From a virus (lineage: Duplodnaviria; Heunggongvirae; Uroviricota; Caudoviricetes), in the IMG/VR virus record IMGVR_UViG_3300014204_000132: a stretch of DNA of 64,000 bases. One strand, written 5' to 3'. Both the position numbers and the translations under genes were made by a program. Position 1 is the stretch's first letter; each line of letters starts with the position of its first letter. The notes under the pieces are model-generated. The model did no database searches. It was not told the origin of the DNA and saw only the letters and a list, made by a program, of their open reading frames with translations. Positions 5,691 to 41,363 of this stretch are shown piece by piece.

Positions 5691-6300
5691 AAAGCAACAT
5701 ATAAACGGTTCATGTTTAAAACAACCTCATCTATAATTCGGTCTAAATTTTCAATTGGTGGTTTATTTTCAAATATTAAATCAAATCCATCATAATTATC
5801 GAGTTCAATTTCTGATGCATGATTCATATCTCTCTGGTCATTTTCTCTTAGAGATGTTGGGTCACCATTCAACCTGATTAATAAACCACCCATTTTTTTG
5901 ATATAATCAGCCTCGTTTTTAAATCTAACATCCGAAACAACCCAATTATCAACTTCAGGGTGATACTTTGAAAACAATGATAAAACCCACGCATCATGAT
6001 GAAGATTATTTCTAATAGCTTCAGTGCCTATTTTTTGCTGCATTTCACCAACTGTCATCCCCCACTCAGGTAAAAATTTTAGTTTACCTTCTCTGGACAT
6101 AGCTTCTTCCATAGATATACCAGTTAAATAAGATACGATATATTTTAAATCGTATGCAAATTTTTTGTTTTCAAATTTAATCCCTTGTTTTTCGTAATAC
6201 TGAATAATTCTTTCAGAAAATGCATCTTTTCCATTTAACCCGACCCTATCTTACCAGAAATCCCGATTAGATAGGGTCGTTTTTTAATTGTTTTATTCAT
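5687..6300 (-). CDS. deoxynucleoside monophosphate kinase (T4 gp1-like), apparently frameshifted
   Basis: The C-terminal part (5687..6112 plus in-frame upstream extension to 6253) reads ...GLNGKDAFSERIIQYYEKQG...WVVSDVRFKNEADYIKKMGGLLIR (dNMP kinase-like). The N-terminal piece 6235..6300 reads MNKTIKKRPYLIGISGKIGSG* in another frame. A 1-nt change in the ggtt/aaa run at 6234-6241 would fuse them into the GxxxxGKD P-loop. Confidence 0.55.
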
Positions 6301-16624: not shown

Positions 16625-19600
16625 TTAATTTAATTTTTTAAGTTCTCTTTTTAACTCCGATAAATCATCCAGCCAAAGTTCATGTAAAGTTTTTTTAGAA
16701 TATTCTTCCAATTCTTTAATTTTTTCAGCTAATTGATTTTTTAAATTATCATATTTTTCTTTGGAAAGAGAATATATCACCATATTTAATAGATAATCAT
16801 ACGAATCATCTATTTTATCCAAATTATTTTTTATACATTCCTGTTCAATAAATTCTTTATTTTTATTGGATATAACGATTTTATTTTTAATTATTAAATC
16901 TATAAAATTACACCTGTTATTAAGTATCTGTATATCTCTTTTGAATTTATCAATTACAGAATTTTTTCTTTTATCATAATAATCTAATCTGATTTCCATG
17001 AAATCATCTATTACTTCATAAATGTCCCCGTATAATTTGATTTTATCATTCTTATCAAACAAATTCATGTTCGAATTATTGATATACGATGTTAAATCAA
17101 ATATTTTCAAAATATAATTAGGGGTAAATAATTTTAAAGATTCTTTAGGTAATTGTATTATAATATTGACGTTCTCATCTGTACTATGCTTAGTATAATT
17201 CAATATAACTTTAGTATCAATCAATTCATTTAATTTGAAATAAAATTTATCATACCACAATCCAATCGGTAATTCAGTTATTTTTAACCTATCATTATGT
17301 AACTCAAATGTACCCTCTGTAACATATCGGTCTTTATCCAGATATATTTTACCTTTAAATTTATTATAATATGGATTAATATTTTTTCTTGGATTAGCTG
17401 AACCTTTTATTTTTTTTTCAATATAATCAACCAAATCAACAATATTATATTTTGGAACTAATGTTGACCAACCAGTTCCAATACCTTCTGCCCCATTCAC
17501 TAATACCATTGGAATAATAGGTATATAAAATTTAGGTTCAATCACATATCCATCATCATCTAAATATTCTAAAACTGCATTATCTTCTTTCCTGAAAATA
17601 TAATCTGTTATAGGAACTTTATTTGTAAAAATATATCTCGAAGCAGATGAATCTTTACCACCCATTGAACGAGTTCCAAATTCTCCAGATGGTATAAGCA
17701 AATTTATATTATTTGAACCAACAAAATTCTGAGCCATATTGATAATTGTTTGTTCAAGTGACTGTGGGCCATGATGATAAGAGGTGGCTTCAATAATAGC
17801 ACCTGATAATAAACCCACTTTAACTTCATCTTTATAATTCTTTTTATTTAAAGTATAAAGTATTTTTCTATGAGTTGGTTTAAATCCATCAATAACACTT
17901 GGTATTGACCTAATATTATCGGCCATACTAAATTCAATAAGTTCATCATTTATAAATGAATCATAATATGTTTTTTTACCAAATTTATCTACTTCATTGT
18001 TTGGTTTATATTTCAACAACCAATTTTTTCTATCTTCAGCCCTATTTTTACGAAAAGCCATATCAATTAAATCCTTGGTTATTTCTGGATTTCGATAATT
18101 AAAACGTATTAGATGTTTATCAATTTCTTTAAAGAATTCTTTTGATTCATGTGGTTCTATTGTACCAAGTCCTTTATAATATTTTACAAACCAATTATCA
18201 ACATTTACAGTTTCTTTCCATCTCCTGTATTCATTTAATTTATAAAAATATTTAACAACAGCACCTTTTTTTACTTTAACAATTGGTGTAACAAATTCGT
18301 ATATAAAGTCAGCTTCAAGTAAATATGGGAAAAATGTTTCAAACAAATTAATCAACAACCCTTTAATATGTGAACCATCATGGTCTGCATCGGTAAAAAG
18401 AACAACTTTACCATATCTTAATTCAGAAGTATTTGTATATTTTTTACCAATTTCTAAACCTAAAGCTGATATAATACCCTTAATTTCTTCATCTTCTAAT
18501 ATTTTTTTAACTGCTATATCTCTAACATTTAAAGGTTTTCCTTTCAATGGAAATGCACCATAATAATCTCTACCAGTCACTGAAAATCCTCTTAAACAAG
18601 AAGAAAGTGCTGAATCCCCTTCAGTTAAAAATAATAAACACATTCTACTATCTTTAGTACCAGCTCTATTAGCATCATCTAATTTTCTCACTTTAACAGT
18701 TCTACCATTCTTATTTTTAACAGCTTTCTGTAAAGCTAATTGTTCTTTGAGTTCAATATAATCAATAATTTCCTGAGTAATATCTGATTTTAATATTTTC
18801 TTAATAAAATTATCTGATATTTCAATATCTTTAAATGATGATATTTTGGTATTTAATATTTCTTTAACCTGACTGTCAAATTCTGGATTAAACACTTTAG
18901 TATTTAAAAATAAAAATATTTTTGATTTAATATCATTCGGATTAATCTCGAATTTATTTCCTCGTGAAAGGGATGATTTTAGTTTACTTGTTATTTGATT
19001 TATAGCATGATTTACATGAGTTCCACCTTGTAATGTAGCCAGACCATTAACCAATGAAATTTGTTCAAATGAATCAGAAAAAGTTTTCATAACACCTATT
19101 TCCCATAAATCGTTTATTTTTTCATAAATAATTTCATGGTTATCGAGCATGAATAATTTCATATAATCTTTAAATGATTTTATACTAATCAGATTATTGT
19201 TGAAATATACTTTCACATTTGGATTATATGCAGCTATATCAATAGTTCTCTTAATCATAACTGATTTAATATCATCAATTAATTCTATAAATCCGAACCT
19301 TTCGTAATCTGGGAGAAAAGATATTTTAGTAAATTTTTTTGAAGATACTCTAATGTGTGGTTTTGGTAATTTACCTTTTTTATCCGATGATAAATTATCA
19401 GTAAATACTTGTTTGTAATAATTTTTACCATCAGCAGTTTCAACTATAAACTCTTTAGAAAATATATTACAAGCTTTTGCACCTATACCATTTCGACCAC
19501 CCCCTATTCGTTGTTCTGTATCATCATAATTTTCACCCGTAAGTAAATGTCCAAAAATTAATTCTGGTACATATACTTTTTCATCTTTATGAATAACAAC

Positions 19601-19918
19601 AGGTATACCATCACCATCATTCCAAACAGATATTTTATTATTATCAATTTCAATTTTAATAGATTTAACTCTACCTGTCTTTACACTGTGGTCAGAAGCA
19701 TTAGTAATAATTTCATCAAATATTTTTATTAATCCAGCATTATAATTAATTTCTTTCTTAACTATTTTTAAATTTTCAAAATTATCTATATTATCAACAG
19801 TGAATACCATTCTTCTTTCAGAATTAATTGAACCAATATAAGTATCACTACGCTGTAAAACGTGTTCTCTCTGGGAGAGTTTCTTATATTGTTCTTCAAT
19901 CTTCTTTTTCTTAACCAT
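16625..19918 (-). CDS. type IIA DNA topoisomerase, fused ATPase plus breakage-reunion subunits
   Basis: GHKL N-box IFDEIITNASDH, GGRNGIGAKACN, Toprim LTEGDSA...DADHDGSHIKGL, PLKGKPLNV, DGFKPTHRKILY and the active-site tyrosine motif SRYIFT. 1097 aa. Confidence 0.9.
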   Translation of the reverse strand: MVKKKKIEEQYKKLSQREHVLQRSDTYIGSINSERRMVFTVDNIDNFENLKIVKKEINYNAGLIKIFDEIITNASDHSVKTGRVKSIKIEIDNNKISVWNDGDGIPVVIHKDEKVYVPELIFGHLLTGENYDDTEQRIGGGRNGIGAKACNIFSKEFIVETADGKNYYKQVFTDNLSSDKKGKLPKPHIRVSSKKFTKISFLPDYERFGFIELIDDIKSVMIKRTIDIAAYNPNVKVYFNNNLISIKSFKDYMKLFMLDNHEIIYEKINDLWEIGVMKTFSDSFEQISLVNGLATLQGGTHVNHAINQITSKLKSSLSRGNKFEINPNDIKSKIFLFLNTKVFNPEFDSQVKEILNTKISSFKDIEISDNFIKKILKSDITQEIIDYIELKEQLALQKAVKNKNGRTVKVRKLDDANRAGTKDSRMCLLFLTEGDSALSSCLRGFSVTGRDYYGAFPLKGKPLNVRDIAVKKILEDEEIKGIISALGLEIGKKYTNTSELRYGKVVLFTDADHDGSHIKGLLINLFETFFPYLLEADFIYEFVTPIVKVKKGAVVKYFYKLNEYRRWKETVNVDNWFVKYYKGLGTIEPHESKEFFKEIDKHLIRFNYRNPEITKDLIDMAFRKNRAEDRKNWLLKYKPNNEVDKFGKKTYYDSFINDELIEFSMADNIRSIPSVIDGFKPTHRKILYTLNKKNYKDEVKVGLLSGAIIEATSYHHGPQSLEQTIINMAQNFVGSNNINLLIPSGEFGTRSMGGKDSSASRYIFTNKVPITDYIFRKEDNAVLEYLDDDGYVIEPKFYIPIIPMVLVNGAEGIGTGWSTLVPKYNIVDLVDYIEKKIKGSANPRKNINPYYNKFKGKIYLDKDRYVTEGTFELHNDRLKITELPIGLWYDKFYFKLNELIDTKVILNYTKHSTDENVNIIIQLPKESLKLFTPNYILKIFDLTSYINNSNMNLFDKNDKIKLYGDIYEVIDDFMEIRLDYYDKRKNSVIDKFKRDIQILNNRCNFIDLIIKNKIVISNKNKEFIEQECIKNNLDKIDDSYDYLLNMVIYSLSKEKYDNLKNQLAEKIKELEEYSKKTLHELWLDDLSELKRELKKLN

Positions 19919-31058: not shown

Positions 31059-32960
31059 ATGAATTTTTTTATGAATTATTTATCCTACTTTGTAGTGGGG
31101 TTTGTTGTTCTGTTAATGGGTTTAGCCTATAAACCATTAATGAGATTGTTCGGTATAGTTGTTATACCAGATGATAAGATTGGTCTTGTCAATAAAGTAT
31201 TCCGTTTATGGGGTGGCGCACTTCAAATCGAGAACGGTATTGTTGCAATTAAAGGTGAAGCAGGTATGCAAGCACCTTACTTATCTTCAGGTGTCCATTT
31301 TTGGTTGTGGCCTTGGAAATATAAAATTTCTGAGATTGGTTTTTTTAAAGTAGACCAACATCAGGTGGGTTTGATTGAAGCCATCGATGGTAAACCACTT
31401 CCAGAAGGTTCTATTTTAGCAACCTATGTTGAATGTGAAAATTTCCAAGATGCAACAGCATTCTTAGAAGGTGGTGGGTTTAAAGGAAAACAAACTAAAA
31501 TTTTACCAGCAGGTACTTATAAAATTAATACATTCCTTTTTATCGCTAAAGCTGTTGATGCAGAGATTATTGAACAAAATAAAATTGGTGTTGTAACAAC
31601 TCTTGCTGGTAAACCACTTCCAGCATCTGAAATTGCAAGTAGTGAAATGACTTTTAGTCATGAGTCATTTCAAAATGCTGATATATTTTTGAAAAATGGT
31701 GGGTTTAAAGGTTTACAATCACAGGTTATTCAATCTGGTATGTATTATCTGAATCCTTGGTTTGTAAGAGTCCAAAAATTTGATATGACAGTTATTCCTA
31801 TTGGACACGTTGGTGTTGTTATATCATATGTTGGAGAAGAAGGAAAAGACCTAACTGGTGATGGTTTTAAACATGGTAATATTGTAACAAGGGGACAAAA
31901 AGGTGTGTGGAATGAACCACTCGACCCGGGAAAGTACCCAATCAATCCTCTTACAACAAAGGTTGAAATAGTACCAACAACAAACTTAGTATTAAATTGG
32001 GCTACTGGCAAGAATGAAAGTCATGAACTTGATAAAAACCTTTCAACTATTACAGTTCGTTCAAAAGATGGTTTTACATTTAATCTGGATATAAGTCAGA
32101 TTATCCATGTACCATCAAAAGAGGCTTCAAAAGTTATTGCCCGATTTGGAAATATGTTGAATCTTATTTCTCAGGTTCTTGAACCAACTATCGGTAATTA
32201 TTTCCGTAACTCAGCACAAGATAGCGATGTAATTCAATTCCTTGGTGAACGTAGAGAACGTCAAACTGAAGCCAAAGGACATATTTCAAAAGTGTTGAAT
32301 GAATATAATGTTACTGCTGTTGATACACTTATTGGTGACATCGTTCCACCAAAAGAACTTATGGCAACATTGACTGATAGAAAAATTGCACAAGAACAGA
32401 AAACAACTTTCATTACTCAGAAAGATGCACAGGCCACTCGTCAGGAATTTGAAAAAGCTAAAGCCGTTGCCGATATGCAAGAAAGATTAGTCGAAGCCGA
32501 CCAAAATGTTGTAATATCTCAAAACGTGGCTTCTCAGAAAGTAAAAGAAGCTGAAGGTACAAAACAGTCTAAAATATTACAGGCCGAAGGTGAAGCACAA
32601 GCTATCGAAAGAACTGCTACTGCAACAGCTAAAAAAATTACCCAAGAAGGTAACGCAAAAGCTGAAGTAACATTATCTATCGGTAAAGCGACTGCTGAAG
32701 CTTATCAATTAACAGTTGATGCTATGGGGGCTGATAACTTTGCTAAATTGAAAGTTATTGAAGCCATATCTTCTGGAAATATTAAGATTACACCTGATGT
32801 TATTGTTGGTGGTGGTCAAAATGGTGGTGGTAGTGCTATTGATGCACTTCTTGGTTTAGAAGTTGCTAAATATGTAGGTAAGAGTATAACTGTTGATACA
32901 CCTAAAACTGATGTAACTAAAGCTGATGATGCCAAACCTTCAAAAAAGGAATCTAAATAG
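31059..32960 (+). CDS. SPFH/Band-7 (flotillin-like) membrane protein
   Basis: N-terminal TM. Central SPFH-like region and a long A/Q/E-rich coiled-coil (QAEGEAQAIERTATATAKK) as in flotillin/HflK. 633 aa. Confidence 0.6.
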   Translation: MNFFMNYLSYFVVGFVVLLMGLAYKPLMRLFGIVVIPDDKIGLVNKVFRLWGGALQIENGIVAIKGEAGMQAPYLSSGVHFWLWPWKYKISEIGFFKVDQHQVGLIEAIDGKPLPEGSILATYVECENFQDATAFLEGGGFKGKQTKILPAGTYKINTFLFIAKAVDAEIIEQNKIGVVTTLAGKPLPASEIASSEMTFSHESFQNADIFLKNGGFKGLQSQVIQSGMYYLNPWFVRVQKFDMTVIPIGHVGVVISYVGEEGKDLTGDGFKHGNIVTRGQKGVWNEPLDPGKYPINPLTTKVEIVPTTNLVLNWATGKNESHELDKNLSTITVRSKDGFTFNLDISQIIHVPSKEASKVIARFGNMLNLISQVLEPTIGNYFRNSAQDSDVIQFLGERRERQTEAKGHISKVLNEYNVTAVDTLIGDIVPPKELMATLTDRKIAQEQKTTFITQKDAQATRQEFEKAKAVADMQERLVEADQNVVISQNVASQKVKEAEGTKQSKILQAEGEAQAIERTATATAKKITQEGNAKAEVTLSIGKATAEAYQLTVDAMGADNFAKLKVIEAISSGNIKITPDVIVGGGQNGGGSAIDALLGLEVAKYVGKSITVDTPKTDVTKADDAKPSKKESK

Positions 32961-33073: not shown

Positions 33074-33529
33074 ATGAAAACCTTTCTGATTGTATTTAGT
33101 GTTATTTGTATTTCTTTATTGGTGTGGTTTCATTTTAAACCAGCACCCCATCATGAAACACCTGATTATATCGAAACAGTTTCAACAATCAAAGGAAATT
33201 GGCATCTTTTAAAATTATTGGCAGTCTCGCCTACTGAAACAAGTTCATATATACCAAAAAATATAGATGAAATACAAAAGATTATCACAGACACTACATT
33301 TGAGAATATATCTAATGCAAACGGTAATATAATAACATTTAGTGGGAAATATAAATTTGAATGTGATACTATTTATGTTGAATATATTAGTAGTCATCCT
33401 ATTTCCGAAGCCATTGGTGATTCAATGGTATATACTGTTCATCTATGGGGAACTACTATGATTCTTTATTCAACAAGAATTAGTGATGGTGTAGAGTTGA
33501 AAATTACAGCTTTATATTCAAAAAATTAA
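33074..33529 (+). CDS. hypothetical membrane/secreted protein
   Basis: N-terminal hydrophobic segment FLIVFSVICISLLVWF. 151 aa. Confidence 0.45.
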   Translation: MKTFLIVFSVICISLLVWFHFKPAPHHETPDYIETVSTIKGNWHLLKLLAVSPTETSSYIPKNIDEIQKIITDTTFENISNANGNIITFSGKYKFECDTIYVEYISSHPISEAIGDSMVYTVHLWGTTMILYSTRISDGVELKITALYSKN

Positions 33530-33535
33530 AATGAT

Positions 33536-33778
33536 TTACACCAGTTCTTCTAATATTTTTATTAATTCTTCCAATATAAATTGTGATTTATATGGCATTT
33601 TAGATTCAACTTTATCAGCTTCAGTGTTTATTTTAGCAATTACATCTTTAGATATTTGTCGTGCAACATAAGCTAATTCTGGATATCTGTCAGCACCTGA
33701 TATAGGTTTACCTTTAGAATCAAGTCCATTATCACGTTCTTCTTCTGTATAATTTTCAAACTTCATAATATCTTCCAT
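33536..33778 (-). CDS. hypothetical small protein
   Basis: 80-aa ORF. Confidence 0.4.
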   Translation of the reverse strand: MEDIMKFENYTEEERDNGLDSKGKPISGADRYPELAYVARQISKDVIAKINTEADKVESKMPYKSQFILEELIKILEELV

Positions 33779-33813
33779 ATTAAATGTGTTATTTTTAGGT
33801 TATATATTAAAAA

Positions 33814-34326
33814 TTATATTTTATTTTCTATAACACAATATATATCATTATTTGTTTTATTATTGATTATTATTAATTCTTCTATTTCAAACCCATTTGT
33901 TTTCCCTATACCACCACTATTAAATCCGATTGATATAACATGACCATTAGTTTTAATAATTCTTGTTATTTCTTTTTTCAGAAAAGTCCAATACTGTGTT
34001 CGTGTATGGTGTAATTTACGTTTTATGTTTAAATCGTCAAAATATTTCATCATTTGTGTTGCACTATACGGTGGGTCATATATTATTATATCAACACTTT
34101 TATCTTTCAATTCTTTCAAAAAATCTAATGCATCTAAGTGATAATCAACATTATATACACTGTTTATGTCATTGTTTATACTTGCCAATTTATTATCTCC
34201 TGAAAATGGATTCACTGATATTATATTTTCTGTTTTTTTTAGAAAAAATGAAATTTTTTCTAAAATTTCAGGATGATTGGTATAATCATCATATCTATTA
34301 TCGTCTTTATATCTTGTTATTTTCAT
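33814..34326 (-). CDS. small DPPY-motif methyltransferase (phage Dam-like / RsmD-like)
   Basis: ISVNPFSGDNK...DALDFL...VDIIIYDPPYS. 170 aa. Confidence 0.5.
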   Translation of the reverse strand: MKITRYKDDNRYDDYTNHPEILEKISFFLKKTENIISVNPFSGDNKLASINNDINSVYNVDYHLDALDFLKELKDKSVDIIIYDPPYSATQMMKYFDDLNIKRKLHHTRTQYWTFLKKEITRIIKTNGHVISIGFNSGGIGKTNGFEIEELIIINNKTNNDIYCVIENKI

Positions 34327-34833
34327 TTAAAATAATTTATTTTCAACTACACAAACTGTATCATAATGAATTCCACCATGCGGTACTATTAATATTTCTT
34401 CTATTTCTAAATTGTTAAATATATTAACACCCGATGAATTCCAACTAAAAGTTATAATTTTTCCATTTATTTTTAATTTTTTTTGATACAAATCAAACAA
34501 TTTTAACCAATATGCCTCATTATTATTAAGATGATTAGAATCGTTGAATATTTTATAACATTGATTTAATTGATAAAAGTTATAGGGTGGGTCGTTTAAA
34601 ATGAAATCTATGGAATTGTTTTCAAATAAATTTAAAAAATCTAACGCATCTAAATTATAATCCGTGTTATATGTTGTATCTAAATCATTTGTTATTTTAG
34701 CAATTTTACTATTATTAGCAAATGGGTCAATACTTAAAAAATCGGAGCTGTTATATTTTTCGATTAAATTTTTAATAGGTTTTATAGAAAAAGTATTTTT
34801 ATTTGGCATAGACCATAATCTATTGATAATCAT
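34327..34833 (-). CDS. small DPPY-motif methyltransferase, paralogue of 33814..34326
   Basis: SIDPFANNSK...DALDFL...IDFILNDPPYN. 168 aa. Abuts its paralogue. Confidence 0.5.
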   Translation of the reverse strand: MIINRLWSMPNKNTFSIKPIKNLIEKYNSSDFLSIDPFANNSKIAKITNDLDTTYNTDYNLDALDFLNLFENNSIDFILNDPPYNFYQLNQCYKIFNDSNHLNNNEAYWLKLFDLYQKKLKINGKIITFSWNSSGVNIFNNLEIEEILIVPHGGIHYDTVCVVENKLF

Positions 34834-35013
34834 AAATTTACATTCACATTTTTTTAATAATAAAAGTATATATTATAAATTTGTGGTTATATTTAGTTGA
34901 ATTTATTTTTTTTTAATTTTTTTTTATTATTTTTGCATGTGATTATTTTATTAAATAAATATATAATTTCTATAATCAACTGAATATTAATAACTTAACT
35001 TAAATTAAATATT

Positions 35014-37446
35014 ATGAAAAAAATCGATTATGAAAAAGTGTTTTATGATTTATTAAACATCGTTAAATCAAATAATGTTGAAGATTATTTGAGTGTTAAC
35101 GGTCTTTTAAATAGGGACTTGTGGAAAAATATTAATGGTGTCGTTAGCACCGATGGAATAATTCAGAATAGTAATGCTGATTGTGTACCTGCGTTAACAG
35201 AAAAATTAACAAATTCAGTTGATGCCCTTATTGAAAGGGAAATAGAATTACATAATAATTCTGTTTATCCAAAAAAATATAAAGATGTAATAAATAATAA
35301 TTGCAAACATCTGAAAGTAGAAAACTCTTTTAATAAACAACCCCATTTATTTAACAGCGACCCAAATATTTATATAGTTTCGAGATTGGGTACAACTATT
35401 CCAACTTTGAATATTATCGATAGGGGTATAGGGCAAGATATAACAACCTTTGAATCGACTTTTTTAACAATGACCAATTCTAATAAAATTACAAAATTTT
35501 GTTTGAATGGAGCATATAATACTGGGTCATTTAGTATCGTCAGACATTTAAAAGAACCTAATTATCAATTAATTATAAGTAAAAAACCAGCATCTTTAAT
35601 AAAAGATAATAAAAATAAAGATGTTTGGACATATTCACTGTTACGTATTTTTGAACCAAAAAAAGGAACAAAATTAAAAGAATTTAAATTTCTTTGTCCG
35701 AATGGTGAATTACCACACTTTGAATCCAAAGCAGGTATAAGGGTAATACCTATAAATGATGATAAAAAGAATAGAGGTTATCTTGAACATGGAACACTTA
35801 TTCAATTATATGAATGTGACACTAAGGGGTTCAATTCGTTGATAACATCCGAATTGAAATATCGTTTAGGTTGGTATTATCCAAATATACCCTTTCCAGT
35901 GTCTATGATAGAAGAACGGGAGTATGAATCTAAAGGTTCTGAAAAAGCAAAATTGAATGGTATTGTTTTCGAGTTCGAACATAACATTAAAGAGGGTAAA
36001 GAAGCCATATTATATCATGTTGATAAAATTGCAACAGTAGGTAAATATAAAATACCTTATACTATATATATTGAGAACCCGACAACCACAGCGAGGGGTG
36101 AAGGTGAAAAAAGAACGAAAAAAAACACAGACCGAAAAAAACGTGGTGACATGTGTTATTTTTTCACTGTTAATGGACAAACCCAAGCTACAAAATCCAA
36201 CTGGAGAATAAAACATATATATAGTTATATTCTGAAAAACATTGTTATGTTTATTGATTATTCCAGTATTGAACCACACGAACTCGGTAAACATATTAAA
36301 ACCGACCGTTCTGGATTGAATACTAATTCAGTTATTAATGAAGAAATTTTTAAAATCATCGAAGATGAGTTACGTGATAACCCTCATATAAATGCGATTG
36401 AAGAAGAAATTAGAAGATTTAGATTAAATTCTTCTAATGATTATAACCAAGATGAAGCTAAAAAAGTAGCTTTAAAATGTGTTCACAAACTCTTTAATTT
36501 AAAAGAAACACCTATCGCCACCGATTCTAACGGTGTTCTTACACCATATTATACTGGTAAAGAGAATGGTTTACCTAAAGATAAAAACGGTAAATATTTT
36601 AATGGTAAACATAAAGGTGTACCACGTACAACTAATTATCCCACTATTGATGATTTCATATTGAAGTATTCGAAATATGATTTTGATAATCCTAAAGTTG
36701 GATATAAAGATGAAAATTCAAGAAATCTTCTATATTCAGATAAATCAGTAGAAATAGAAGTTTATGTGGACGGAGCTGCCATAGAAACGTCTACTAATTC
36801 AGAATTCCCGGGTAATTCTATTATCTATATCAATTATTCGAGTGATAATGGATTTAGAGTTAATAAAAATTCTGAAGTGACTATCAAGTTCTATATTGAT
36901 AATGGAGGTAATATTATAGAGAAAGAAGTTACTTATAATATTATAATGTTCGAAAAAAGAGAAGAAACTGATAAACCACAAGTCACGAATAATAGATTTG
37001 CAAAGGTGAATGATAAGATTAATGTCATATTTCAGAAATATGAAGAATTAGCAGACAGTGTACTTACTAATTCCTTTAAATTGCAAAAAGATATCGTGGC
37101 TATTCCAGTGTTGGGTGGTGAAAATAATATTGACATTTATTTTAATATGAACAACCCAAACTTTGTTCGTGTTTTAGATAGTGGTGCTATTGTTAGTGAT
37201 GATGAGCAAGGACGGATAAAAAGTATAATTGATGTTGCTTTACGTGTTGAAACATTAAAATTGTATGATGTTTACCATAGATTAAGCGATGATACCGAAT
37301 CTAAAACCGATACTTCTGATTATAATAGTGGTATTATTTCACTGGCTAGTATCATGAAAGAAACTACATTAGAAAAACTAATGTTCAACCATTTTTACAC
37401 CTTACAGGATGGGTTGGTTAAATTATACAATGATGAAATAAAATAG
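35014..37446 (+). CDS. large protein with N-terminal GHKL (Bergerat-fold) ATPase-like motifs
   Basis: EKLTNSVDAL (N-box E..N..DA), NIIDRGIGQD (G1 DxGxG) and a Gly-rich NGAYNTGSFS (G2-like). 810 aa. Confidence 0.45.
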   Translation: MKKIDYEKVFYDLLNIVKSNNVEDYLSVNGLLNRDLWKNINGVVSTDGIIQNSNADCVPALTEKLTNSVDALIEREIELHNNSVYPKKYKDVINNNCKHLKVENSFNKQPHLFNSDPNIYIVSRLGTTIPTLNIIDRGIGQDITTFESTFLTMTNSNKITKFCLNGAYNTGSFSIVRHLKEPNYQLIISKKPASLIKDNKNKDVWTYSLLRIFEPKKGTKLKEFKFLCPNGELPHFESKAGIRVIPINDDKKNRGYLEHGTLIQLYECDTKGFNSLITSELKYRLGWYYPNIPFPVSMIEEREYESKGSEKAKLNGIVFEFEHNIKEGKEAILYHVDKIATVGKYKIPYTIYIENPTTTARGEGEKRTKKNTDRKKRGDMCYFFTVNGQTQATKSNWRIKHIYSYILKNIVMFIDYSSIEPHELGKHIKTDRSGLNTNSVINEEIFKIIEDELRDNPHINAIEEEIRRFRLNSSNDYNQDEAKKVALKCVHKLFNLKETPIATDSNGVLTPYYTGKENGLPKDKNGKYFNGKHKGVPRTTNYPTIDDFILKYSKYDFDNPKVGYKDENSRNLLYSDKSVEIEVYVDGAAIETSTNSEFPGNSIIYINYSSDNGFRVNKNSEVTIKFYIDNGGNIIEKEVTYNIIMFEKREETDKPQVTNNRFAKVNDKINVIFQKYEELADSVLTNSFKLQKDIVAIPVLGGENNIDIYFNMNNPNFVRVLDSGAIVSDDEQGRIKSIIDVALRVETLKLYDVYHRLSDDTESKTDTSDYNSGIISLASIMKETTLEKLMFNHFYTLQDGLVKLYNDEIK

Positions 37447-37473
37447 TAATGTCGCTCATTATATGATTATAAA

Positions 37474-37506
37474 TAGCACCACTAAAAAATGGTGCTATTT
37501 TATTTT
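37474..37506. terminator. bidirectional hairpin terminator
   Basis: TAGCACCActaaaaaaTGGTGCTA followed by TTTTATTTT. The stop codon of convergent gene 37495..37725 lies in the 3' arm. Confidence 0.55.
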
Positions 37507-37725
37507 GTCCTTCTTTAAATCATTTATTACTTTATAGATTTTGTTTATTTCTAAACATCTTTCTGGAAAGGCTAAATCTTTTATTTCATTATGTATTACA
37601 CGTATATAATTACTTATATCTTTATCTATTAAATTATTTAAATTAATAGGTTTTCTACCCCTTTTATAAGTGTGTTTATCGAATATCGCTTTAATATCTT
37701 TTGATATTTTATCGATATCTAACAC
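37495..37725 (-). CDS. hypothetical small protein
   Basis: 76-aa ORF. Confidence 0.35.
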   Translation of the reverse strand: MLDIDKISKDIKAIFDKHTYKRGRKPINLNNLIDKDISNYIRVIHNEIKDLAFPERCLEINKIYKVINDLKKDKIK

Positions 37726-37738
37726 TGTTATATTTTTT

Positions 37739-38017
37739 TTAAATATTATATATTAGTAAATATATAGTTCCAAACATAATTATAACACCGAAAATTACTA
37801 TTAAATCATTTTTTATTTTCTGCCAAAATGTTCTTTTTGCATATTCTACACACTGACCTTTATATTTAAAATGTATCCGTATCCAATAGGTTGATTCTAT
37901 GGCTTCCTTAAAATTTAATTTTAGACAAGAAATGAAAAATATTCCTATCATCCAGAATAAAAAATATAACCAATCTAAAATTTTATAAACCATTTTATGA
38001 AAATTTTTCTCCAGCAA
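37739..38017 (-). CDS. small membrane protein
   Basis: Two TM segments. 92 aa. Confidence 0.35.
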   Translation of the reverse strand: MLEKNFHKMVYKILDWLYFLFWMIGIFFISCLKLNFKEAIESTYWIRIHFKYKGQCVEYAKRTFWQKIKNDLIVIFGVIIMFGTIYLLIYNI

Positions 38018-38369
38018 ATTTATCTATTTCAAAATAATTAGCAGTAATTTCTTCTCCTTTTTTAATATTATTATTTGCTATCATATCACCCTCTATGTTC
38101 GGATTAGAATTTGGGTTGTTACTATGGTTTGTAAATCTATCATTAACAGCAGATAATAAAAATATATCAGTCTGTGCATCTAAAAAAGCATATTTCTTTA
38201 TAAATTCCTTTTCAACATCATTCAACCTTTCAACTGTTTCTTCATCCAAGGTTATATCTATATATGAATTATATTTCCATATTACCGTACCTTCTAAAAT
38301 ATCTTCAACAGCAAACACTCCAAGGTTATCAATCTCACTTTTATCTATATAAGTTTTAACCAGTAACAT
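37995..38369 (-). CDS. minimal SET-domain protein lysine methyltransferase
   Basis: NLGVFAVEDILEGTVIW...NDRFTNHSNNPNSNPN...GEEITANY correspond to the GxG, RFINHSCxPN and EELTxxY SET signatures. 124 aa, the same size class as the minimal chlorovirus vSET. Confidence 0.6.
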   Translation of the reverse strand: MLLVKTYIDKSEIDNLGVFAVEDILEGTVIWKYNSYIDITLDEETVERLNDVEKEFIKKYAFLDAQTDIFLLSAVNDRFTNHSNNPNSNPNIEGDMIANNNIKKGEEITANYFEIDKFAGEKFS

Positions 38370-40301: not shown

Positions 40302-41363
40302 TTAATGTTTTTCAATTAAATCAACGATTTCAGAATAAAAATTGTTTTTAATTGCTGAATTATAAGCACCACTATAATTATTAATAAAATCACTTCTCGA
40401 TTTACATAACAATGCAATTTCTTTACATTTTTCTTTTGTCCAATAACCGTTCGGGTTTCTTAAAATATTCATGTGTGAACATAAATTATCTAACCATTTA
40501 TTTTTTCGACACAACTTATAAGCAGTGTAAAAATTTTTACTAAATTCTTTTTTCGATTTACACAATAACACACTTTTTTCACACTGTTCATATGTCCAAT
40601 AACCATATGGTCTACTTTTGGTATTCATGTGTAAACATATTTCATTCATCCATTTATTAAAACGAGCAGAATTGTAAGCACTACTATATTTAATGTGAAA
40701 AGCTTTTCTTGATGAACAGGTTGAAGCAACCTTTTGACATCTTTCTTTTGTCCAATATTTATTAGAGCCTCCTAATGAACCAGCTTTTGCTTTATTTAAA
40801 ATATTCCAACCAGCCTGTTTATATTTATTAATAAAATATTCTTCTAATATTTGTGCTTCTTCTTTAACCACGTAATCTGATAATTGTTTACATATGGGAT
40901 TAATAATCATTTTTTTATATTTTAGTACTGGACTATTCTTATTATAGTTATGATAATTTGTTCTTTCTTCTAAATTCCCAGTTAATCCTATATATGCCGA
41001 ATTATCTTCAAATTCCCACACATATATACATCTAAAATATTTATTACCAATATTTTTCATATGGGAACATATCGTATTTAGCCACCCCTTTCTATATGCT
41101 GCATGATACGCACTGTTATATTTTATATAAAAATCACTTCTTGAATAACATAATAATGACACTTCTTGACATTTATCATAATTCCAGAAATTCTTTGGTT
41201 TATGTATCTTAAACATATGAATACATATAATATCTAACCAATTCTTATTTATTGCTTTATAATATGCACCAACATGTTTACTACATAATTCTGTTCTTGA
41301 ATCACATAATAATGCAACTTCTTTACACCTCTCAAAAGTCCAATATCCATTTTTATTTTTCAT
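40302..41363 (-). CDS. GIY-YIG nuclease with six repeated 45-aa modules
   Basis: Central FRCIYVWEFEDNSAYIGLTGNLEER (GIY-YIG). It is flanked by repeats of GYWT.E.C.E.A..C.SR..F...AY..A.KN.WL..IC.HM. Confidence 0.6.
   Translation of the reverse strand: MKNKNGYWTFERCKEVALLCDSRTELCSKHVGAYYKAINKNWLDIICIHMFKIHKPKNFWNYDKCQEVSLLCYSRSDFYIKYNSAYHAAYRKGWLNTICSHMKNIGNKYFRCIYVWEFEDNSAYIGLTGNLEERTNYHNYNKNSPVLKYKKMIINPICKQLSDYVVKEEAQILEEYFINKYKQAGWNILNKAKAGSLGGSNKYWTKERCQKVASTCSSRKAFHIKYSSAYNSARFNKWMNEICLHMNTKSRPYGYWTYEQCEKSVLLCKSKKEFSKNFYTAYKLCRKNKWLDNLCSHMNILRNPNGYWTKEKCKEIALLCKSRSDFINNYSGAYNSAIKNNFYSEIVDLIEKH

Follow-up and report, generated by a model that had tools for sequence, protein, structure and literature searches.

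The nearest described precedent for a GHKL protein encoded beside methyltransferases is the MORC/paraMORC group, whose GHKL+S5 proteins are found with methylases in restriction-modification operons (Iyer, Abhiman & Aravind 2008; PMC2292703). Phage methyltransferases of the small type considered below have also been listed already, as a circularly permuted M.MboIIA/M.MunI-like adenine methylase of jumbo phages (e.g. AQW88654.1; PMC7824862). Here we describe a locus in which two such methyltransferases, MT-A and MT-B, stand beside an 810-aa GHKL ATPase. It lies in a 64,000-nucleotide stretch (the window) of IMG/VR virus record IMGVR_UViG_3300014204_000132 (Caudoviricetes). Our preferred reading, to which we give a probability of roughly 0.45, is that the three genes form a phage-borne, paraMORC-like module for methylation-coupled discrimination between self and non-self DNA.

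Results

Organization of the locus

Both methyltransferase genes are on the minus strand. MT-A (34327..34833, 168 aa) is a canonical member of the phage mini-methyltransferase family and the predicted catalytic subunit; MT-B (33814..34326, 170 aa), whose start immediately follows the MT-A stop codon, is a divergent MT-A paralogue and is predicted to be a non-catalytic or weakened partner. An AT-rich divergent region of 180 bp (34834..35013), read directly and presumed to hold promoters, separates MT-A from the plus-strand gene for the GHKL (Bergerat) ATPase (35014..37446, 810 aa), which belongs to a prokaryotic family without a name. A sigma-70 scan of this region returned 45 sites against 37.6 +/- 6.6 in shuffles, a GC content of 26% making such a scan uninformative, and the region aligns only loosely with its equivalents in L001 and L108, two of the related phage loci described below. 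Downstream of the ATPase, 25 nt past the stop codon, lies a terminator-like hairpin (37471..37500, plus strand) with an 11-bp stem and a T-rich tail; it is the sole such site in 33400-37800, which is weak evidence where 1.1 are expected by chance. An 80-aa open reading frame at 33536-33778 on the minus strand was considered as a fourth gene of the module and rejected: its positional equivalent in L001 matches window positions 37739-38017 instead, and a counterpart is absent from L003, L105 and L108.

MT-A and the mini-methyltransferase family

The earlier note took both small reading frames to be amino-methyltransferases, and both are indeed amino-methyltransferase-like. The phrog_11619 profile is matched by residues 11-166 of MT-A (E 1.2e-37) and residues 28-169 of MT-B (E 1.8e-33), motif IV, (D/N/S)PP(Y/F), reads DPPY in both window proteins, and the AF2 model of MT-A (pLDDT 87.7) has a complete Rossmann methyltransferase fold. 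Searches with MT-A found 1,580 or more homologues, about 168-175 aa long and 49-57% identical to it. The motifs of MT-A run from I (DPFAN, residues 36-40) through NDL and DALDFL to IV (DPPY, residues 81-84). Motif I is a variant, DPFANNS in MT-A and NPFSGDN in MT-B, and in the profile search this block aligns with the DPFAGSG block of N4CMT. Neither protein has the beta-class order (IV-VIII, TRD, X-I-III), as motif I precedes motif IV in a permuted arrangement, and neither contains a target-recognition domain within its roughly 170 aa. PF01555 is not matched by either; the top Pfam models are PF10237 and PF03602, at 16-18 bits and under their cut-offs.

Profile and fold comparisons differ in what they suggest about the substrate. 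The profile matches of the mini-methyltransferases are DNA N4/N6 methyltransferases (rotifer N4CMT at E 1.5e-4, M.MboIIA, DpnA, CcrM and M.PvuII), and PADLOC Type II MTase models match them too. The closest whole folds to the MT-A model, however, are the RNA m2G methyltransferases Trm11, TrmN and RsmD/YhhF, along with an rRNA m4,2C synthase, and the JGI auto-names are TrmN6 and RsmD. These likenesses, the missing target-recognition domain and the RNA targets raised for another small phage DAM family (PMC7824862) would suit a module in which MT-A/MT-B methylate exocyclic amines of tRNA or rRNA and an Hsp90-like ATPase remodels an RNA-protein complex, for RNA repair or counter-defence. The three genes of L105 do sit among RNA-repair genes, with a T4-type RNA ligase and a 2H phosphoesterase on one side and Tpt1 (PTS_2-RNA) on the other, but this setting is found in only one of the five phage loci, and the ATPase family's bacterial partners are genuine N6_N4 methyltransferases of the DNA type. 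We regard an RNA role as quite improbable, and infer that the substrate is DNA.

Two further candidates were rejected. Dam-like self-protection at GATC is excluded because the window contains 0 GATC sites in 64 kb. The idea that the 171-aa and 766-aa genes flanking the mini-methyltransferase of Staphylococcus phage LSA2311 encode an unrecognised second paralogue and an unrecognised GHKL protein was considered and dismissed.

Complementary degeneration of MT-A and MT-B

MT-B aligns with MT-A at 36% identity (E 3e-31). It keeps DALDFL, DPP and an NSGGIGKTNGF motif, and lacks the family-invariant N-terminal WxMPNKNTF, D36, W131 and the PHGGxHxDT loop. Its motif IV varies among orthologues, reading DPPY in the window and L001, DPPS in L003 and L108 and DPPT in L105, so that the aromatic residue is gone in three of the five; MT-A reads DPPY in all five. 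Across the five orthologues MT-A keeps 257 of 350 family-invariant positions and MT-B 182 of 350, and the two sets are complementary: about 20 near-invariant family residues kept by MT-A are gone in MT-B, and the reverse is also true, the losses in MT-A being different ones (K113, I116, R118, I119, G137). MT-B is nevertheless still 51-69% conserved.

This pattern suits an obligate heterodimer in which MT-A would be the catalyst and MT-B would have no catalytic activity or a weakened one, and the complementary residue loss, taken with a gene spacing of 0-4 nt, points to a single heteromeric enzyme and not to two that work separately. The earlier note had proposed the latter, namely two active mini-methyltransferases with separate specificities that widen self-protection, accompanied by a MORC-like defence ATPase. 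Both paralogues of the window and of L001 do retain DPPY and all 14 family-invariant columns, and the loop after motif IV (residues 85-107) has diverged in MT-A and MT-B alike, which could alter specificity; the MT-B of the window, with its DPPY intact, could itself be an active enzyme. The reciprocal losses, the DPPS and DPPT of the other orthologues and the fixed, closely spaced MT-A to MT-B order nonetheless tell against two target specificities, a proposal that we now find very doubtful.

The 810-aa ATPase

As the earlier note had recognised from sequence motifs, the 810-aa protein belongs to the GHKL/Bergerat ATPases, but to none of the topoisomerase, MutL or kinase families. In motif I (the N-box, ExxxNxxD), E63, N67 and D70 are invariant in 26 of 26 and in 43 of 43 family members; D136, G138 and G140 (with Q141) of motif II (DxGxG) and K158, G166 and G171 of the glycine-rich motif III are likewise invariant. 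The structure prediction that the note had called for returned the Bergerat alpha/beta sandwich, in a model of moderate confidence (pLDDT 72). The HMM check was less clear-cut: the window ATPase has no Pfam match at all, the curated HATPase models (PF02518/PF13589) included, and the RsmD-like PF03602 stayed below its cut-off for the methyltransferases, while PF13589 is matched by three of 26 relatives of the ATPase (best E 3.8e-6).

In approximate layout, N-terminal helices are followed by the GHKL domain (residues ~55-300), a transducer/middle-like domain (~300-470) with invariant R302, G316, G388-Q389, D415 and R432, a helical linker with a disordered stretch (~493-540), a beta-sandwich (~555-650) and a C-terminal region of alpha/beta structure and long helices (~665-810) in which N711 and N714 are conserved. 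No nuclease domain was found in the whole protein or its C-terminal half by Pfam, NCBIfam, PADLOC, PHROG or PDB profiles. A hidden C-terminal nuclease was also rejected, since a profile of 23 diverse C-terminal halves run against PDB sequences and Pfam gave weak beta-sandwich noise only.

The protein might instead be a chaperone of the Hsp90 type that helps phage proteins to fold or assemble, its linkage to methyltransferases being incidental or that of a chaperone to its clients. Single-sequence and profile searches of Pfam, NCBIfam and PDB sequences gave no match to Hsp90, and no sequence relationship to Hsp90, HtpG, TRAP1 or GRP94 is detectable; the C-terminal half differs from that of Hsp90 in consisting of a beta-sandwich and a helical region, and the genomic settings of the family are mobile and defence-like. 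We consider a chaperone highly improbable. T4 rIIA resembles the ATPase in being a large phage protein with GHKL at its N-terminus and, for rIIA, a variable C-terminus (PMC7824862), but specific similarity is lacking (hhalign probability 1%, no PHROG match, Foldseek BFVD rank 12 with TM 0.22), and this identity was rejected. A known defence system was rejected as well, no PADLOC model matching the ATPase at E <= 1.

Conservation of the three-gene linkage

All five loci found in the phage clade (the window, L001, L003, L105 and L108) contain the complete trio, with MT-A always followed by MT-B at a distance of 0-4 nt. The window, L001 and L108 have the ATPase gene diverging from the pair; in L003 and L105 all three genes point the same way. 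The trio is thus retained down to 28-40% ATPase identity despite inversion of the ATPase and complete turnover of the flanking genes. There is no conserved nuclease gene in the phage loci, and the HNH gene of L001 is missing from the window. The phages that carry the trio form a rare lineage and are huge (about 420-680 kb) and AT-rich, and a metagenome scan for further phage-clade loci recovered bacterial-type relatives only, at <=29% identity.

Neither the 50,697 deposited phage genomes nor the PHROG and PADLOC libraries contain the trio; tblastn of the ATPase against these phage records returned nothing, and PHROG matched none of 26 ATPase family members. The association pointed out in the earlier note is real, though the wider theme, the pairing of GHKL proteins with methyltransferases, is already known in prokaryotes (PMC2292703).

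Distribution of the ATPase family

At 50% identity the ATPase family forms no fewer than 1,356 clusters, and species-representative genomes contain at least 480 of its loci. Its members are annotated solely as 'hypothetical protein', no model for it exists in Pfam, NCBIfam, PADLOC or PHROG, and we found nothing specific in the literature on the family as anti-phage GHKL proteins. Bacteria and archaea carry it patchily, often at sites resembling defence islands, and its neighbours include type I RM with a relaxase, the Bil system, GIY-YIG and Endonuc_Holl nucleases, a second HATPase_c_3 protein, SIR2/DUF262, integrases and toxin-antitoxin pairs. Neither a linked SF-II helicase nor an RE-fold, HNH or Vsr nuclease is consistent, ResIII (2), GIY_YIG_2, Endonuc_Holl and YhcG occurring sporadically.

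About one quarter of some 110 ATPase-family loci adjoin a methyltransferase. A SPPY methyltransferase of ~400 aa adjoins the ATPase, mostly convergently, in 17-19 genome or viral loci and five metagenome loci of the ~110, and in a neighbour-joining tree these loci group into coherent clades. A separate ATPase clade, together with L024, L065 and L066, has beta-class SPPF/SPPY methyltransferases of ~300 aa. Both kinds of partner are of the N4-cytosine type and have unrelated architectures. No specific homology links the mini-methyltransferases to the ~400-aa SPPY partners (hhalign probability 7.6%). Counting the mini-methyltransferase pair, three unrelated methyltransferase types are linked to the family. 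The remaining three quarters or so of bacterial and archaeal members have no neighbouring methyltransferase, and thus the ATPase has no strict need of one nearby; most members are solitary or lie downstream of a ~75-aa partner.

These distributions also bear on whether the phage genes are simply independent neighbours, orphan anti-restriction mini-methyltransferases beside an unrelated GHKL protein (rIIA-like or for host takeover, for example) and linked through shared ancestry. All five trio loci come from one lineage, so shared ancestry does contribute to the linkage. The mini-methyltransferase is a single canonical copy in cultured phages, and as an orphan without a GHKL partner it occurs in Staphylococcus, Streptococcus, Croceibacter and Rak2-like jumbo phages, just as the majority of bacterial ATPases do without a methyltransferase neighbour. 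Against mere adjacency stand the survival of the trio through inversion and flanking turnover, the independent linkage of two other methyltransferase types to the same ATPase family and the failure to find similarity to rIIA. On balance independent neighbours seem to us rather unlikely.

Discussion

We favour a methylation-linked self/non-self module because the ATPase family repeatedly adjoins DNA methyltransferases. MT-A and MT-B would each be one half of a minimal amino-methyltransferase that has become heterodimeric by subfunctionalisation, with MT-A providing catalysis and MT-B structural or substrate-binding contacts. This enzyme would mark the phage's own DNA at sites other than GATC, most likely at adenine N6, as motif IV is DPPY. 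The 810-aa protein may be an ATP-driven, dimerising GHKL clamp of the MORC/paraMORC/Hsp90 type, with a transducer-like second domain. Its activity would be coupled to the methyl mark, so that it acts on DNA without the mark, whether of the host chromosome or of co-infecting elements, and leaves marked phage DNA alone, much as a restriction-modification system does. As no nuclease domain is recognised, the ATPase may trap DNA topologically or compact it, as MORCs do, or recruit an unlinked nuclease.

A bolder extension, unlikely in our estimation, sees in the ~800-aa GHKL family the effector of a MORC-like 'epigenetic restriction' that needs no nuclease and is widespread among bacteria, archaea and huge phages. 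The clamp would read N4-cytosine or N6-adenine methylation and entrap or compact unmarked DNA without cutting it, and the phage pair would be the first viral heterodimer in the style of METTL3/METTL14, with one catalytic and one pseudo-catalytic subunit, derived from a duplicated minimal permuted enzyme.

Should the preferred reading be correct, it would provide a testable handle on a large family of hypothetical proteins missing from Pfam, NCBIfam and PADLOC, and extend the purely computational hypothesis of MORC/paraMORC-methylase coupling to huge phages, suggesting that these carry a methylation-based self/non-self system of their own against hosts or competing elements. The pair would be a compact natural case of a minimal homodimeric methyltransferase resolving into catalytic and non-catalytic subunits, with a bearing on the origin of METTL3-METTL14 and MTA1c-type enzymes, and an effector mechanism with no recognisable nuclease becomes a question that experiments can address.

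Comparison with known systems

Like MORC and paraMORC proteins (PMC2292703), members of the ATPase family carry a GHKL domain with unimpaired ATP motifs in their N-terminal part, apparently followed by a second domain of transducer type, and end in a C-terminal extension peculiar to the family; both groups are patchy and laterally mobile, with DNA methylases as neighbours, joined in some cases by small nucleases and another GHKL protein. The family, which may be one of the published paraMORC1-5 groups, differs in having no consistent SF-II helicase or RE-fold nuclease, and the phage version in using a split mini-methyltransferase. In classical restriction-modification there is a recognisable endonuclease partner, and none was found for MT-A/MT-B. 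VcSduA (GHKL-Shedu) and GHKL-nuclease fusions, in which the GHKL domain is proposed to control an anti-phage effector (PMC12137116), offer a parallel to the ATPase, in which, unlike VcSduA, DUF4263, PD-(D/E)xK and other nuclease domains were not detected.

For the methyltransferases, a purely functional analogy is with METTL3-METTL14 and the ciliate MTA1-MTA9, in each of which one paralogue keeps DPP[YW] and the other is degenerate at the aromatic position yet conserved, as MT-A and MT-B appear to be. The phage pair is not of the MT-A70 lineage, its MT-B reads DPPY in the window, and its pairing is deduced from sequence. Its closest relatives are the proteins of phrog_11619 (e.g. AQW88654.1 of Serratia phage BF), which share the length of ~170 aa, the placement of motif I before DPPY and the lack of a target-recognition domain, and whose conserved loop after motif IV (SPRQVSE...TTQS) is lost from both MT-A and MT-B. 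Elsewhere phrog_11619 is a single-copy orphan, whereas here there are two copies, which have degenerated in complementary ways and are linked to a GHKL ATPase.

A conserved gene trio in huge phages

The three open reading frames lie exactly where the earlier note had placed them. MT-A (34327-34833, minus strand, 168 aa) and MT-B (33814-34326, minus strand, 170 aa, its first base directly after the MT-A stop codon) encode two small methyltransferase-like proteins, and across a 180-bp gap (34834-35013) the gene for the 810-aa GHKL ATPase (35014-37446, plus strand) diverges from the pair. The proposed paralogy of MT-A and MT-B holds (36% identity over 140 residues, E 3e-31), LDALDFL and DPPY occur in each of them, and the GHKL motifs are present in the 810-aa protein as an N-box ALTEKLTNSVDA, a G1 box IIDRGIGQ and a G2-like NGAYNTGS. 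The G+C content of the window is about 26%. Based on its phage-family genes (a fused topoisomerase II [phrog_543 plus phrog_551], phrog_29329 and a UvsW-like helicase), the length of its source contig (678 kb) and a 421-kb relative catalogued in IMG/VR, we treated its source as a huge phage.

Searches from both the ATPase side and the MT-B side collected five independent phage-clade loci, and the complete trio was present in all of them; scanning metagenomes added none to this set. The ATPase gene is divergent from the pair in the window (contig of 678 kb), L001 (421 kb) and L108 (4.2 kb), and co-directional in L003 (6 kb; MT-A, MT-B, then ATPase) and L105 (95 kb), whose MT-B protein cluster occurs a second time on a 614-kb contig. 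Compared with the window ATPase, those of L001, L003, L105 and L108 are 70, 40, 37 and 28% identical, respectively. Beyond the trio itself, none of the genes around it in L003, L105 or L108 has a counterpart next to the trio in the window; one ORF each of L003 and L105 matches a window gene, at a distance of more than 10 kb from it. L001, though a close relative of the window, has rearranged trio flanks.

Individual loci carry further genes of their own. Near the module L001 has IS605-type TnpB/OrfB and Y1 transposase genes, and an RRXRR/HNH endonuclease gene is inserted directly 3' of its ATPase gene (214-1630 and 10642-11925 for the transposase and endonuclease genes); the window has none of these. 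In L105 the trio sits amid genes for a T4-type RNA ligase 1, a 2H-SAK phosphoesterase and a Tpt1 RNA 2'-phosphotransferase (796-1938, 5757-6233 and 10014-10535), the Tpt1 gene beginning 3 nt past the ATPase stop codon.

MT-A and MT-B as a proposed split minimal methyltransferase

The assignment of the pair as small methyltransferases drew only sub-threshold matches in Pfam (N6-adenineMlase, Cons_hypoth95), but was carried by full-length matches to the phrog_11619 'DNA methyltransferase' family (MT-B E 1.8e-33, MT-A E 1.2e-37); the DPPY region also matches many Type II methyltransferase models of PADLOC. This mini-methyltransferase family has at least 1,580 homologues, nearly all of 160-180 aa. 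Cultured phages carry it as a single orphan gene, among them Staphylococcus Silviavirus, Streptococcus and Croceibacter P2559S phages and the Rak2-like jumbo phages Serratia BF, Yersinia fHe-Yen9-04 and Erwinia pEa_SNUABM. The closest solved relatives by sequence profile are beta-class N4/N6 DNA methyltransferases (rotifer N4CMT, E 1.5e-4; further M.MboIIA, DpnA, CcrM and M.PvuII), with the C-terminal DPFxGSG block of the beta-class enzymes aligning to the N-terminal DPFAN block of the mini-enzymes. This profile search agrees with the description of the family by Iyer et al. (PMC7824862), who cite its member AQW88654.1 from Serratia phage BF. We found no experimental report in the literature of a substrate or target site for these enzymes.

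The AlphaFold model of MT-A, a confident one (pLDDT 87.7, pTM 0.86), shows a bare Rossmann methyltransferase core. Its top whole-fold matches are the RNA m2G enzymes Trm11, TrmN and RsmD, which come first because the motif order is permuted and linear. The matches might nonetheless be taken to favour a module directed at RNA, as might the location of one of the five trio loci among RNA-repair genes, which weighs against the DNA-directed module proposed below; the solved relatives of the pair by sequence profile are DNA methyltransferases, and we consider an RNA-directed module quite unlikely.

Five MT-A and five MT-B orthologues were set against 35 canonical members of the family, using the 70 alignment columns whose conservation in these proteins reaches 90% or more. 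MT-A retains WxMPNKNTF, D36, A39/N40, DPPY, Y93, W131 and the PHGGxHxDT loop, while K113, I116, R118, I119 and G137 are lost in all five orthologues; MT-B shows the reverse pattern of retention and loss. The post-motif-IV loop of the family (SPRQVSE...V.M.TTQS) is gone from both. Motif IV of MT-B reads DPPY only in the window and L001, DPPS in L003 and L108, and DPPT in L105. The flipped target base stacks against the aromatic residue of (D/N)PP(Y/F/W), and loss of this residue is a mark of non-catalytic partners such as METTL14. MT-B has nonetheless stayed well conserved, with an identity among orthologues of 51-69%, against 60-73% for MT-A and 28-70% for the ATPase, and MT-A invariably precedes MT-B with a spacing of 0-4 nt.

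The simplest reading of these sequence patterns, we infer, is duplication of a homodimeric minimal enzyme whose two copies then subfunctionalised to form an obligate heterodimer, in which MT-A would be catalytic and MT-B structural or substrate-binding. The earlier note had instead suggested that the duplication could provide two target specificities for self-protection. The complementary residue losses, the DPPS or DPPT of three of the five MT-B proteins and the fixed, tightly spaced order speak against that suggestion, and we now regard it as very unlikely.

The 810-residue ATPase

Alone, the 810-aa protein had no match in Pfam, PHROGs, PADLOC, NCBIfam, PDB sequences or 50,697 phage genomes. 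A word-indexed search returned 25 homologues of 668-811 aa, all at least 762 aa long except one partial, and an exhaustive profile search recovered 3,421 clusters at 50% identity, nearly all of 740-860 aa (1,356 of them at E <= 1e-30). Scanning species-representative genomes gave at least 480 loci, dispersed among bacterial and archaeal phyla; RefSeq plasmid copies are labelled 'hypothetical protein'.

In the match table TRAP1/GRP94 stand at 14.2 (329-349, N plus middle domains), followed by MORC3 (12.3; 275), SMCHD1 (11.7; 311), TopoVI-B (11.4; 346) and MutL (10.8; 267). Against viral models, Hsp90 and topoisomerase ATPases were best, with rIIA only at rank 12. We hold an Hsp90-type chaperone role for the protein to be highly improbable. 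The second domain (about residues 300-470; invariant R302, G316, G388-Q389, D415 and R432) is presumably a transducer completing the ATP site. Conservation is weak (P543, G600, N711, N714) in the C-terminal half, where a beta-sandwich precedes an alpha/beta and long-helix region; as a profile this half matched no known domain. No nuclease was recognised anywhere in the protein.

Neighbourhoods in bacteria and archaea

ORFs were called and neighbours clustered in about 94 genome and viral loci. A methyltransferase of about 400 aa (motif I around residue 70, SPPY around residue 260) accompanies the ATPase in 17-19 loci, usually convergent to it and directly downstream, and metagenomes added five more; a neighbour-joining tree groups the adjoining ATPases into two coherent clades. 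A high-G+C clade, assumed from its composition to be actinobacterial (L125 2330-8218, L126 1517-10044, L007 537-9304), has a conserved operon of a sigma-70-like gene, a second HATPase_c_3 protein (about 600 aa), the ATPase and a convergent beta-class SPPF methyltransferase, optionally with Endonuc_Holl or with AAA_16 plus GIY_YIG_2, and resembles a multi-gene system containing two GHKL proteins. L024, L065 and L066 also carry beta-class SPPF/SPPY enzymes. The ATPase family has thus acquired DNA methyltransferase neighbours on at least three occasions, each time of an unrelated type. N4-cytosine methylation usually goes with S-P-P-(Y/F), the motif of the bacterial partners; the phage pair carries DPPY, as adenine-N6 enzymes usually do.

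A same-strand gene of any kind lies within 400 bp upstream of the ATPase in 79 loci. In 21 bacterial, archaeal or viral loci a conserved co-directional protein of about 75 aa is encoded immediately 5' of it (KRERFxRLAxxRTNxVLKxLKxLGNCSNRSxYEYTEEExNKIF; for example L004 7766-7984, L063 283-507); it has no Pfam match and may be a dedicated partner or regulator. Other neighbours are mixed, with many conflict genes among them (type I RM, relaxase, Bil, PIN/MazE, ResIII, DndB, SIR2, DUF262, integrases). Most cellular family members are without a neighbouring methyltransferase, which weighs against a module and would suit trio neighbours with independent functions; set beside the intact trio in five of five phage loci, such independence seems to us unlikely.

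Palindrome avoidance and other window genes

Palindrome avoidance is extreme in the window: relative to second-order Markov expectation it has no GATC (166 expected), one CTAG (at 37346; 73 expected) and five CCGG (26 expected). All five trio phages avoid CTAG. For GATC the avoidance is total in the window and L105 (0/32 observed/expected) and only partial in L001 (17/47), L003 (6/14) and L108 (5/9). This avoidance points to strong restriction pressure on the trio phages. With no copy in the window, GATC is ruled out as a self-protective target of the trio methyltransferases.

Several other window genes deserve mention. A single 1,097-aa type IIA topoisomerase (16625-19918, minus strand) fuses the phage 'large' (phrog_543) and 'medium' (phrog_551) subunits, so that one chain carries HATPase_c, DNA_gyraseB, Toprim, TOPRIM_C and DNA_topoisoIV, parts which T4-like phages divide among different subunits. 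The window also encodes a 124-aa SET-domain protein (37995-38369, minus strand; PF00856, E 5.6e-12), a putative protein lysine methyltransferase of this huge phage; its gene lies two small ORFs beyond the 3' end of the ATPase gene and runs the other way. The gene for a 633-aa SPFH/Band-7 protein that has a membrane segment at its N-terminus (31059-32960, plus strand) precedes one for a 151-aa membrane protein matching DUF4488 weakly (33074-33529, plus strand); this block of about 8 kb is missing between helicase and trio in L001. A 353-aa protein (40302-41363, minus strand; L001 homologue 49% identical) has a GIY-YIG nuclease core flanked by at least six repeats of about 35 aa (YWT.E.C.E.AL.C.SR..F...Y..AY..A..N.W).

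Proposed function and relation to known systems

We propose that the phage trio is a module of the GHKL-plus-transducer ATPase and DNA methylase type. The predicted MT-A/MT-B heterodimer would mark phage DNA, and the ATPase would be an ATP-dependent dimerising clamp acting on unmarked DNA. As no nuclease was recognised in the ATPase and no nuclease gene is conserved near the trio in the phage loci, the effector step is left to MORC-like entrapment or compaction, or to recruitment of an unlinked nuclease.

Annotation and one comparative paper had already recorded the mini-methyltransferase family. What is new is the complementary split of a minimal methyltransferase, and the placing of the ATPase in a very large unnamed family without a Pfam, NCBIfam, PADLOC or PHROGs model. 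The view that the association is not a described phage module stands in so far as the conserved trio in huge phages is new, but the association of GHKL proteins with methylases is already known in prokaryotes. Iyer, Abhiman and Aravind (PMC2292703) proposed GHKL-plus-transducer ATPases with DNA methylases as a theme of restriction-modification-like systems, and the trio fits this theme in both its ATPase anatomy and its gene neighbourhoods.
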